Origin: Candidatus Parcubacteria bacterium
Lineage (GTDB): Bacteria > Patescibacteriota > Minisyncoccia > Phycocordibacterales > JAKFXT01
Direction: 5' to 3'
Assembly: GCA_021414235.1 (NCBI GenBank)
Contig: JAIOOV010000003.1
Span: forward strand, 37,560 to 101,559
Length of the DNA: 64,000 nucleotides
Shown here: positions 42,210 through 45,200 of the stretch, piece after piece
Layout: each line of letters starts with the position of its first letter
How positions within the stretch are numbered: the first letter of the stretch is position 1
Position numbers and translations under genes: made by a program
Notes under the pieces: generated by a model
What the model was told of the DNA's origin: nothing
The model's input: only the letters and a program-made list of their open reading frames with translations
Databases searched by the model: none

Positions 42210-45200
42210 AGATACCCTGACGGGAGTCGACGGATTAGTAGTTCTCGGCTCAACGCCTTGCGGCGCTTACACCTGAACCCTATCAACGTGATAATCTCTC
42301 ACGGGTCTAATAACGATTACTAATCTTGGAGCTGGCTTCCCTCTTAGATGCTTTCAGAGGTTATCCATTCCCGACATAGCTACTCTGCGGTGCCCTTGGC
42401 AGGACAGCAGATAGACCAGAGGTCAGTTCACTTCGGTCCTCTCGTACTAGAAGTAACTCTCCTCAATAATCAACGCCTGCAGTAGATAGGAGACCAACCT
42501 GTCTCACGACGGTTTGAACCCAGCTCACGTACCTTTTTAATTGGCGAACAGCCAAACCCTTGGAAGCTTCTCCACCTCCAGGATAAGATGAGCCGACATC
42601 GAGGTGCCGAACTCTGCCGTCGATATGAACTCTTGGGCAGAACTAGCCTGTTATCCCCAGGGTAGCTTTTATCCGTTAATCTCCGGCCGCATCTAACGCG
42701 GACCGTCGGTTCACTATGTTCCACTTTCGTGCTTGCTTGGCATGTACGCCTTGCAATCAAGCCACCTTGTGCCATTACACTATCGGCACGGTTTCCATTC
42801 GCGCCTAGGTGACCTTGATAAACTCCTCCGTTACTTTTTAGGAGGATATCGCCCCAATAAAACTACCCACCAGATACGGTCCCGTAACGTTTTTTCCGTT
42901 ATGGTTAGCTGGTGCATTCGCGCAGAATGGTATTTCACTGACGAGTCCAGAATGACCGAAACCATTCCTTCAACCTCTCCCATCTATTCTACGCAGCGCA
43001 AACGCAACAGCAATATCAAGCTATAGTAAAGCTCCTGGGGTCTTTTCGTCTAACTGCAGGTAACCGGCATCTTCACCGGTACTGTATTTTCACCGAGCTA
43101 TTCCCCGAGACAGTTCCCCAGTCATTACACTATTCGTGCGCGTCTGAACTTACCAGACAAGGAATTTCGCTCAACTATTCCTCTCAGTTGGACTCTCTCT
43201 TAACCCACTTTTGCAAGTTTGGGTCCGTGACGTTGGTCTCTCGTTGATCACGTTGGACTATCCGCGTATCTCGACGCGGTAGGTAGCTGGAAGTGCAATG
43301 ATTATTGTTTTATAACGGTTTACCTTTTTCTATAACGGTCCCAGTCCTTGTGCGCACGAATTACTTCGTTCGCACAACCTTAGGACCGTTATAGTTACGG
43401 CCGACATTCACCAGGGCTTGCAACAGTCACCACCACATCTTGCGACATGGCAACGCCGTTGTTTGACCTTCTGGCATTGGTCAAGTGTCACCCCCTATAC
43501 ATCCTCTTACGAGTTCGCAGGGAGCTGTGTTTTTGGTAAACAGTTGCCAGGGATACTTTCGCTGCGCCCGTCTTGCGACGGGAAGCCTTATTCCGAAGTT
43601 ACGGCTGCTTTTTTGCCGAGTTCCTTGGGGAAATTTCACTCGTTCGCCTTGCTCTACTCGAGCTGACCACCTGTGTCGGTTTGCGGTACGGTTTCCTGCA
43701 TATTGAAGCTTAGAAGATTTTCTTGGAAGGCTCTTCGGAAGGCTCCCCCGCTTGCGCAGAGTCGTACGAATGAACGAAGTTCGCATTTAAGCGAGTATCC
43801 CGGATTTTCCTGGGATACGCTTCTCATCACCCATAATGCAAATCCAATAATGCACCTTTCCTTGTGTCCTCCGTCCCTCCATCGCATATGCACGAAGTCA
43901 TGGAATATTAACCATGTGTCCATTAGGTGCGGCTTTCGCCATCCCCTTAGGCCCGACTAACCCTTGGCTGATTGTCATCGCCAAGGAAACCTCGGTCTTT
44001 CGGCGTGGCGCGTTCTCAGCGCCATTGTGGTTACTTGTGCCAACATTCTTACTTCCACACGCTCCAGAGTGGGTCACCCCTTCTCCTTCATCGCAGAGTG
44101 GAATATTCTCCTACCGCTCATGAGTTCCATTGAGGAGGCGAAGTGATACCTTCGCCAAAGAACAATATTTGTTGGTCGCCCCGGATGGAGTAGAACCATC
44201 GACCCCTCGTTTGCACGAGTGCTCTTCTATCCTGAGCTACGGGACGACTACCCAACAAACTTCCTCAATGGAACTCACAAGCCCTCAGTTTCGGTACTAC
44301 GCTTAAGCCCCGATTATTTGCGGCGCGAAATCTCTTGATGAGTGAGCTGTTACGCTTTCTTTAAATGATGGCTGCTTCTAAGCCAACATCCTCATTGTCG
44401 GAGAAATAACACCTCCTTTAGTGCACTGAGCGTAGATTTAGGGACCTTAACCGGAGATCAGGGCTGTTTCCCTTTACACCTGTGAAGCTTAGCCCCCACG
44501 GTGTTACTGCCGAGTAATTACTCTTGGTATTCGGAGTTTGATAGGTCTCGCGAGCTTTCGCCCTGTCGAGACCTTCCAGTGCTCTACCCCCAAGAGATAC
44601 GCTCGACGCTATGCCTAAACATATTTCGGAGAAAACCAGCTATTACCAGGTTCGGTTAGCTTTTCACTCCAACCCACAAGTCATCCGAGAGTGTTGAACG
44701 GCTCACCGGTTCGGGCCTCCATCTGTCTTTCGACAAACTTCACCCTGCTCATGGGTAGCTCACCTGGCTTCGGGTCTGATGCATACTACTTAATTTCGCG
44801 CTATTCACACTCGGTTTCCCTATGGCTCCGGCCTCGCGGCCTTAGCCGTGCAGCATGCATCAACTCGTTGGCTCATTCTTCAATAGGCACGCCATGACGG
44901 TCTTGCGACCGCTCTGACTCCTTGTAAGCACACGGTTTCAGGTCTATTTCACTGTCCTCACTGGACTGCTTTTCACCTTTCCCTCACGGTACTAGTTCAC
45001 TATCGGTATTTGAGAGTATTTAGCCTTGCCGGTTAGTTCCGGCGGATTCACTCAAGCTTTTCGTGTCCTGAGTTACTCAAGAATGGCAAAAGAAAGTTGG
45101 CTGCATTTTCGGCTACAGGGCTGTTACCTTCTCGGGCGCTGCTTCCCAGCAGCTTCGCCTAATGCGCCAATTTTTAACTTTCCGAACATAAATGTTCATA

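Follow-up and report, generated by a model that had tools for sequence, protein, structure and literature searches.

The window analysed here is a stretch of 64,000 nucleotides (nt) from a Patescibacteria (candidate phyla radiation, CPR) metagenome-assembled genome with 55% G+C (positions 37,560 to 101,559 of contig JAIOOV010000003.1, GenBank assembly GCA_021414235.1). A ribosomal protein L10 encoded in it shows 100% identity to that of a 'Candidatus Parcubacteria bacterium' assembly. The ribosomal RNA (rRNA) genes of the window are a 23S and a 5S gene, with a 16S gene apart from both. The 23S gene lies on the minus strand at 42214–45536 (2417 bits with the Rfam large subunit (LSU) rRNA model) and is interrupted by an insertion without an open reading frame (ORF), which is the subject of this report. 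An earlier note on this DNA had placed an insertion of about 205 nt here. Its length is exactly 205 nt, the minus strand reading ...GGUCCUAAGGU, the insertion, and AGCGAAAUUCC..., with the longer flanks GGCCGUAACUAUAACGGUCCUAAGGU on the 5′ side and AGCGAAAUUCCUUGUCUGG on the 3′ side. Taking the 205 nt out regains exactly the universal AAGGU/AGCG (the slash marks the insertion point), as the note had claimed, and the exon sequence expected on ligation is AAGGUAGCG. The covariance-model alignment that the note had proposed as a check agrees, since in the LSU model the flanks occupy neighbouring consensus positions, with ~208 nt between them scored as an insertion. The boundaries are fixed and cannot slide, with the 5′ exon ending in U and the element in G, both of which had been pointed out. 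By the numbering of the helix 69 (H69) sequence, we take the insertion site to be Escherichia coli U1931/A1932 and refer to it as L1931. Position 1931 is among the listed rRNA insertion sites of CPR bacteria (PMC11270868), in line with the earlier statement that group I introns are known from this part of the 23S gene. Folded alone, the 205-nt element is modestly more stable than its shuffles (z = −2.3). Intron numbering is used below, in which the window coordinate equals 43377 minus the intron position.

Scanning one genome per species with the pattern CGGTCCTAAGGT-N190-220-AGCGAAATTCC yielded 71 loci (labelled L with a number), 65 of which are homologous to the window element. The hosts of these homologues are nearly all Patescibacteria, belonging to Paceibacterota/Parcubacteria groups, Saccharibacteria and, in one case, Gracilibacteria; the remaining loci are five from Omnitrophota and Planctomycetota with a different insertion of ~195 nt and one that is unrelated. 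When metagenomes were scanned for the exon, a gap the size of a hairpin and GACTRGGAC, at least 120 further loci were obtained, and among the matches listed more than 50 metagenome contigs also carry the family. The 3′ junction was identifiable in 80 listed metagenome loci, one of which gave an empty extraction (length 0) and was left out; the 79 insertion lengths, among the matches listed, were 197–262 nt (51), 302–439 nt (12) and 497–906 nt (16). Sixty-six sequences were aligned as introns (alignment A1) and with their exon flanks (alignment A2). The mean column identity is 52–57%, and invariant blocks alternate with helices in which the changes are compensatory. The family is otherwise restricted to CPR bacteria, but one typical member occurs on L035 (JANMZN010000445.1), which had been assigned to the bin 'Segetibacter sp.' (Bacteroidota); the intron may have been transferred horizontally, or a CPR contig may have been put in the wrong bin.

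A pseudoknotted model was written by hand and counted on alignment A2. Standard pairs occupy 93.4% of the cells, compared with 79.2% in column shuffles and ~40% when the partners are slid, and 38 of the 72 pairs show changes on both sides. Compensatory changes were found in the helices A, X, P2, P3, P8 and P9.0 (Table 1). Hairpin A begins at the first intron nucleotide and is continuous with the exon strand of P1. Helix X, which joins the segment after hairpin A to J2/3, has compensatory changes in two of its five pairs and one-sided changes in the other three, with UGACU facing AGUCA and UAACU facing AGUUA in some members. The motif AUAGUCC (intron 116–122), which the earlier note had regarded as a P7(3′)-like strand, turns out to be the 3′ strand of this covarying helix, and the true P7(3′) is GAGUCC at 182–187. 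The variable region holds a nearly invariant G(R)UAAAC motif (intron 53–59). Further downstream, P3 closes a 15-nt loop, CAACGAGAGACCAAC, composed of the 6-nt linker CAACGA, the P7 5′ strand (G137, bulged A138, G139, A140 and C141) and CAAC. The terminal G is also present in all of the ~108 distinct P4-P6-less members from the species genomes and the metagenome matches listed.

Table 1 Features of the 23S insertion and its exon flanks, in window coordinates.
Feature	Window position	Strand	Intron or exon position and remarks
Whole intron	43172..43376	-	intron 1–205; LSU consensus contiguous across it; same-site homologues in 65 genomes
Helix Y, exon side CUAUAACGGUCCU	43382..43394	-	5′ exon −18 to −6, loop and 3′ strand of H69; proposed partner intron 35–47
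P1 exon strand AGGU	43377..43380	-	5′ exon −4 to −1; 99.6% paired with intron 93–96
Hairpin A	43349..43376	-	intron 1–28; GUAA loop; 10/11 pairs compensatory
X 5′ strand GGACU	43343..43347	-	intron 30–34; pairs with 118–122
Helix Y, intron strand GGGACCGUUAUAG	43330..43342	-	intron 35–47; kept in canonical relatives too
Variable region	43289..43329	-	intron 48–88; length ~25 to 60 nt across the family
Internal guide sequence GCUACCU	43281..43287	-	intron 90–96; same position as the canonical L1931 guide (CGCUAGCCU / GCUGCCU)
P2 hairpin	43262..43279	-	intron 98–115; GNRA loop GAGA; 7/7 pairs compensatory
X 3′ strand AGUCC	43255..43259	-	intron 118–122, in J2/3
P3 and loop	43226..43252	-	intron 125–130 with 146–151; 6/6 pairs compensatory
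P8 hairpin	43202..43225	-	intron 152–175; GCAA loop; 8/9 pairs compensatory
J8/7 and P7(3′) AAGAGAGAGUCC	43190..43201	-	intron 176–187; group I 'S' element
P9.0 hairpin	43173..43189	-	intron 188–191 with 201–204; 4/4 pairs compensatory
Terminal G (omega-G)	43172..43172	-	invariant, 66/66 aligned
3′ exon AGCGAAAUUCCU	43160..43171	-	+1 to +12; +1 to +3 in P10, +7 to +12 with intron 195–200

From position 89 to its end, the element is collinear with a group I intron. P7 consists of G137-C187, the bulged A138, G139-C186, A140-U185 and C141-G184, and the invariant G137, A138 and G139 facing C186 and C187 would have the layout of the canonical guanosine-binding pocket. The P3 loop and the J8/7-P7(3′) strand match the consensus of the group I R (J6/7-P7-J7/3) and S (J8/7-P7′) elements, respectively, which in the canonical intron L054 read GUAGAGACUACACG and GAAGAUAUAGUCC. 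The family sequence AAGAKAGAGUCC was compared with the group I consensus AAGAUAUAGUC, and J8/7 is nearly identical in the two. Within J8/7 and P7(3′), A176, A177, G178, A179, A181, A183, G184, U185, C186 and C187 are invariant. Among the ~105 distinct short members listed, R = GACCA occurs only with S = AGAGUCC (~95) and R = GACUA only with S = AUAGUCC (9), and no mixed combination was seen. The element contains a P3/P7 pseudoknot together with P8, the R and S elements and J8/7, and it leaves a contiguous conserved exon on removal, with U before it and G at its end. RNAalifold instead paired GGAC (36–39) with GUCC (184–187), a choice that was rejected because 184–187 belong to P7(3′), which varies in step with the R element. 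Assigning GGACU (30–34) to P7(5′), or reading the element as a circular permutation, was likewise dropped, as covariation ties 30–34 to 118–122 and the R element was found in the loop of 'hairpin C'.

Although the earlier note had found no convincing P1 pairing, an internal guide sequence is present. GCUACCU is the exact complement of the ligated junction AGGU/AGC and has the polarity of a group I guide. Its ACCU would form a 4-bp P1 with the 5′ exon, in which A93 faces U-1, and its GCU would form a 3-bp P10 with the AGC of the 3′ exon, paired in 100% of the cells, with C91-to-U variants retaining a U·G pair. A 7-mer complement across the junction arises in 1.4% of dinucleotide shuffles. The guide supplies both P1 and P10, although it lies 90 nt from the splice site and forms no local hairpin with it. 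Further upstream in the intron, the family strand GGGACYGUUAUAG (35–47) complements the 5′ exon to form the proposed helix Y, which is paired in 93% of the cells and in the window consists of 12 perfect base pairs and a G·U pair. Against the final 30 nt of the exon, no perfect complement is longer than 12 nt, a length reached in 0 of 2000 dinucleotide shuffles. The exon side is invariant and the changes on the intron side keep the pairing (G or A at 35 against U-6, A-to-G against U, and C or U against G), with the distal five pairs looser. In the loop of P9.0, AGGAAU (195–200, window 43177–43182) complements AUUCCU of the 3′ exon (+7 to +12) in 99.5% of the cells; a 6-mer match of this kind arises by chance in 59% of shuffles, and conservation is the sole evidence for this helix.

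The earlier note had reported two intron copies complementary to the upstream exon. The 12-nt complement is real, and ACCGUUAUAG is conserved across the L1931 lineage, canonical members included. The second ACCGUUAUA copy (intron 59–67) is specific to this window, where it is a direct repeat of the exon-binding strand (the two together within 43310–43338, intron 39–67); the closest relative, L030, reads AACAAUUAAA at this position, and the copy is probably a local duplication inside the variable region. A second insertion was observed in L044 (967–1199) at U1917/A1918, 14 nt upstream of the L1931 intron, leaving an exon of 14 nt between the two introns. This insertion ends in ...UAAGCA rather than in G, and the exon-binding strand of the L1931 intron in L044 matches the exon only once the upstream insertion is removed.

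The element also departs from group I introns. Only 6 nt (131–136) lie between P3(5′) and P7(5′), where P4-P5-P6 belongs. Moreover, U-1 pairs with A93 in 66 of the 66 aligned sequences, and an A stands opposite U-1 in all of the ~108 distinct P4-P6-less members among the matches listed, whose guides read GCUACCU, GUUACCU, GCUAUCU or GCUACCC. The earlier suggestion of a small, minimal group I intron therefore stands as regards kinship with group I introns and falls as regards completeness, given the absence of P4-P5-P6, the U-A splice-site pair and the lack of an Rfam Intron_gpI match. The accompanying suspicion of a non-canonical intron proved well founded on account of the missing P4-P6 and U·G wobble. 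In canonical introns, J4/5, a part of the P4-P6 domain, recognises this wobble, and U-A in its place is consistent with a changed recognition of P1 in a family that lacks J4/5. The Rfam group I model scores the family member L058 at 19.6 bits (E = 0.005), below the gathering threshold of 50 bits, and aligns its P1, P2, P3, P8, J8/7, P7′ and P9, with 7 nt in place of 88 consensus positions that are skipped. Weak matches of R1, a covariance model of the core built from alignment A3, at other 23S sites were considered as further P4-P6-less introns and rejected, as they are ordinary group I introns (for example L058 5736–5944, 56 bits).

Relatives at the same site retain what is missing. By eye, L086 (247 nt) is collinear with the window element except for a 66-nt P4-P6 (UAUAUGCUGG...CAGCAGG...) in place of CAAC, and this sister is recognised as Intron_gpI with 65.9 bits in a match that begins at the guide sequence. 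The relative L083 can be aligned to R1 over its whole length, the model placing an insertion of 80 nt exactly in the P3 loop, compared with 12 model positions, and the P4-P6-containing relatives have 66–80 nt or more between P3(5′) and P7(5′). In addition to P4-P6, the longer relatives have hairpin A, GGACURGGACYGUU, GRUAAAC and the guide at the same position, as well as P2, the X 3′ strand and AGGAA near the 3′ end. Among the matches listed, ~20 of the 23 P4-P6-containing relatives with an identified guide have a G opposite U-1 (GCUGCCU), and 11 of the 16 longest insertions contain ORFs of 159–211 codons; the two that were tested both encode LAGLIDADG_1 endonucleases, in agreement with the I-ShaI-type introns reported at this site (PMC11270868). 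Several of the long members have their endonuclease gene inserted after P4-P6 and before J6/7, where it runs into the R element. One imprecise deletion could plausibly have taken the gene and P4-P6 together.

Most of the P4-P6-containing, often LAGLIDADG-encoding relatives (L142, L108, L151, L178, L104, L076, L126, L083 and others) lack a terminal G. The 3′ strand of P9.0 is followed by U, C or A, and no shift of the boundary yields a G. These relatives look like canonical group I introns without an omega-G. The five Omnitrophota and Planctomycetota loci (L021, L054, L055, L056 and L071) hold a canonical ORF-less group I intron of 192–204 nt at L1931, which has a local P1 and a guide, CGCUAGCCU, similar to that of the CPR family; L054 scores 50.3 bits with the Rfam model.

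The relatives with both P4-P6 and the 5′ domain bear on the possibility that the element is a complete group I intron with an unrecognised P4-P6 equivalent, for instance in its 5′ 89 nt (hairpin A, helix X and the variable region). That region is structured and conserved, and the A-rich invariant GRUAAAC could mimic J4/5. However, in the canonical relatives this 5′ domain is accompanied by a standard P4-P6, located between P3 and P7, and the connectivity differs (X 5′ to Y 5′), with the domain entered from the splice site and not from P3. We consider this explanation highly improbable, and a replacement of P4-P6 by the 5′ 89 nt was discarded as the canonical metagenome relatives carry both. 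Because the P4-P6-containing relatives have it too, the 5′ domain is an ancestral peculiarity of the L1931 lineage and no substitute for P4-P6.

Our preferred reading, to which we assign a probability of roughly 0.6, is that the insertion is an ORF-less intron from a Patescibacteria-specific L1931 lineage of group I introns that has lost the whole of P4-P5-P6, has kept the catalytic half and would be spliced. The loss probably occurred by the same deletion that removed a LAGLIDADG homing-endonuclease gene, and the resulting group I derivative is probably still spliced. The element would descend from group I introns and work like one, while lacking P4-P6, the U·G wobble and a score at the Rfam threshold.

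Several observations weigh against this reading. The window element itself gave no Intron_gpI match in a search of Rfam 15 at E <= 10 with 351 nt around it; the same search returned only the LSU flanks and one chance match to a microRNA precursor. The core pairs of P7 are invariant on both strands, so that classical covariation provides no test of them and the co-occurrence of R and S variants is the only one available, and the pairing of 36–39 with 184–187 is possible as an alternative conformer. P1 is only 4 bp long, with its guide strand 90 nt away from the splice site, and the U·G wobble that it lacks is a near-universal recognition element. Helix Y varies one-sidedly, on the intron side only, and 15 members have a G·G mismatch at its position 40. 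P1, P10 and the 3′-exon helix, being invariant on both strands, likewise offer no classical covariation by which to test them, and they are supported by conservation and by homology to the canonical introns.

Some of these points would suit a splicing-dead relic of an imprecise deletion, either retained in the mature 23S rRNA or cut out by host RNases to leave a fragmented 23S rRNA. Such a relic would account for the loss of a domain regarded as universal and of the U·G wobble, as well as for the absence of an Rfam group I match; an unspliced L1931 intron is on record in Simkania (Everett et al. 1999, as cited in PMC11270868), and an intervening sequence (IVS)-like stem insertion in the same 23S gene suggests that processing or fragmentation is tolerated. 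Yet J8/7, the P7 pocket pair with its bulged A, the terminal G, the guide and the exon-binding sequences are invariant in the ~108 diverged members among the matches listed, P3, P8 and P9.0 show compensatory changes, and the ends of the insertion form no RNase III-type stem. On balance, a relic seems unlikely.

An ordinary RNase III-processed IVS was also rejected, because the ends of the element are not paired with each other (the 5′ end is in hairpin A and the 3′ end in P9.0) and because the site is the conserved H69-H71 linker and no variable helix. The window element shares with the IVS of 23S genes its short length and lack of an ORF, but these sit in variable helices (9, 25 and 45) with one long stem joining their ends, whereas the window element occupies the H69-H71 linker and has a group I core. 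A group II intron was dismissed for want of any Rfam group II match at E <= 10 and in view of a length of only 205 nt, and an archaeal bulge-helix-bulge intron for want of a supporting structure or an Rfam match.

If the element is a group I derivative, the pre-rRNA would be spliced by the usual two guanosine-initiated transesterifications. Hairpin A would stack on the 4-bp P1, and helix X, by joining the strand after hairpin A to J2/3, would fix this stack beside P3. The exon-binding strands could hold both exons, with 13 bp to the 5′ exon (unfolding H69) and 6 bp to the 3′ exon. This covalent and helical tethering of P1 may stand in for the P4-P6 scaffold and for the recognition of the wobble by J4/5, which would account for the U-A pair found in the family where U·G is usual. 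With a loop of 6 nt, the P3/P7 pseudoknot should be able to close and should sterically resemble an ordinary H-type pseudoknot. Help may come from a protein or from the ribosome during its assembly. Removal of rRNA insertions from the transcripts of CPR bacteria is reported in PMC11270868. We further propose, tentatively, that the family could represent a natural and widespread class of ribozyme that performs group I splicing without P4-P6 or the U·G wobble, using a hard-wired P1 (A and X) and ~26 nt of exon pairing. Such a class would be a 'minimal catalytic domain' evolved in nature. Pairing with so much of the exons might, in addition, let the intron spread by reverse splicing with no need for a homing endonuclease.

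Alternatively, the element could be an incomplete ribozyme that needs a partner in trans, such as a host or ribosomal protein or the P4-P6 of another intron RNA in the cell. Ribozymes deleted for P4-P6 are known to be complemented in trans in vitro, and many CPR 23S genes contain several canonical group I introns. In the window, however, no other group I intron reaches the Rfam gathering score, either in the 23S gene or in the other 60 kb, and no candidate protein was identified, so that dependence on such a partner appears improbable.

In size the window element is similar to the group I intron of the Azoarcus tRNA-Ile gene. Its nearest known counterparts are the I-ShaI-type LAGLIDADG group I introns (23IS7; Tsurumaki et al. 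2024, PMC11270868), which occupy the same site in the same host phylum. Common to the two are the 5′ hairpin, GGACURGGACYGUU, GRUAAAC, the guide position, P2, X, P3, P7, P8, J8/7, P9.0 and the 3′-exon-binding AGGAA. Unlike the window element, which has no P4-P6, no gene, an A opposite U-1 and a terminal G, the LAGLIDADG relatives are recognised by Rfam as group I, retain P4-P5-P6 and usually a G opposite U-1 (GCUGCCU), in many cases carry a LAGLIDADG gene of 155–210 aa, and mostly do not end in G. Tsurumaki et al. catalogued the insertions at 1931 and noted ORF-less forms, with no structural description, and they listed many short unclassified CPR insertions (64 of 66 in Saccharibacteria), for some of which an IVS was suggested (PMC11270868). 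The small L1931 introns of Omnitrophota and Planctomycetota are of comparable length (~200 nt) and ORF-less, with L054 at the same site and with a similar guide, but they have a complete P4-P5-P6 and a local P1 with U·G and lack the 5′ domain.

Full-text literature searches of open-access papers found no report of a natural group I intron without P4-P6. A P4-P6-less Tetrahymena ribozyme has been engineered, and its activity reportedly depends on peripheral stabilising elements. This 'minimal catalytic domain' (Ikawa, Shiraishi & Inoue 2000, cited in PMC6257700) likewise keeps the P3-P7/P8 half, but it is laboratory-made and weakly active, whereas the window family is natural, widespread and maintained, and has exon-tethering elements of its own. 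According to PMC6257700, which cites Ikawa et al. 2000, P3-P7 contains the catalytic centre and P4-P6 serves as a scaffold, and in reviews P5-P4-P6 and P3-P7 are the two universally conserved halves of group I ribozymes (PMC6257700).

Other features of the rRNA region were also noted. The earlier note had inferred further expansions from the length of the 23S gene, and most of the extra length is indeed a separate insertion, ~164 nt long, on the minus strand at about 44119–44282 (region 44105–44295), which is missing from all CPR 23S genes compared. It lies at about the helix-45 IVS site and folds (−89.7 kcal/mol, z = −7.1) into a stem about 30 bp long, tipped by a cloverleaf-like element. ARAGORN calls this element 'tRNA-???' (44173–44246) and gives it an anticodon of 2 nt; its sequence includes GGUUCUACU, which resembles a T arm, and ends with GCGACCA. 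It could be a tRNA-like processing handle within an rRNA intervening sequence. In domain I (45100–45300, minus strand), the LSU alignment shows two more small expansions, of ~30 nt and ~19 nt, in variable helices, which look like ordinary lineage-specific ones. The rRNA genes are unlinked and in an odd order. On the minus strand, the 23S gene (45536–42214) is followed by the 5S gene (41920–41815), and ~8.5 kb of protein genes (FtsW/RodA, a sugar transferase and SecD/F) separate the 5S from the 16S gene (33289–31793); a tRNA-Ile(GAU) gene lies another 2.4 kb downstream of the 16S gene, the whole rRNA region spanning 29331–45536 of the window.

If the preferred reading of a spliced, P4-P6-deleted group I intron is correct, the scaffold half of group I introns would be dispensable in nature, with ~100 diverged natural introns keeping only the P3-P7 half, and the family would offer a natural system of ~200 nt for studying the minimal RNA needed in two-step splicing. 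The family occupies a part of the 23S rRNA gene that is essential and conserved universally, and it is missed by standard covariance models, which bears on rRNA annotation, 23S-based primers and phylogenies in CPR bacteria. Its description would also give an identity to part of the short unclassified rRNA insertions of CPR bacteria, notably those of Saccharibacteria (PMC11270868).

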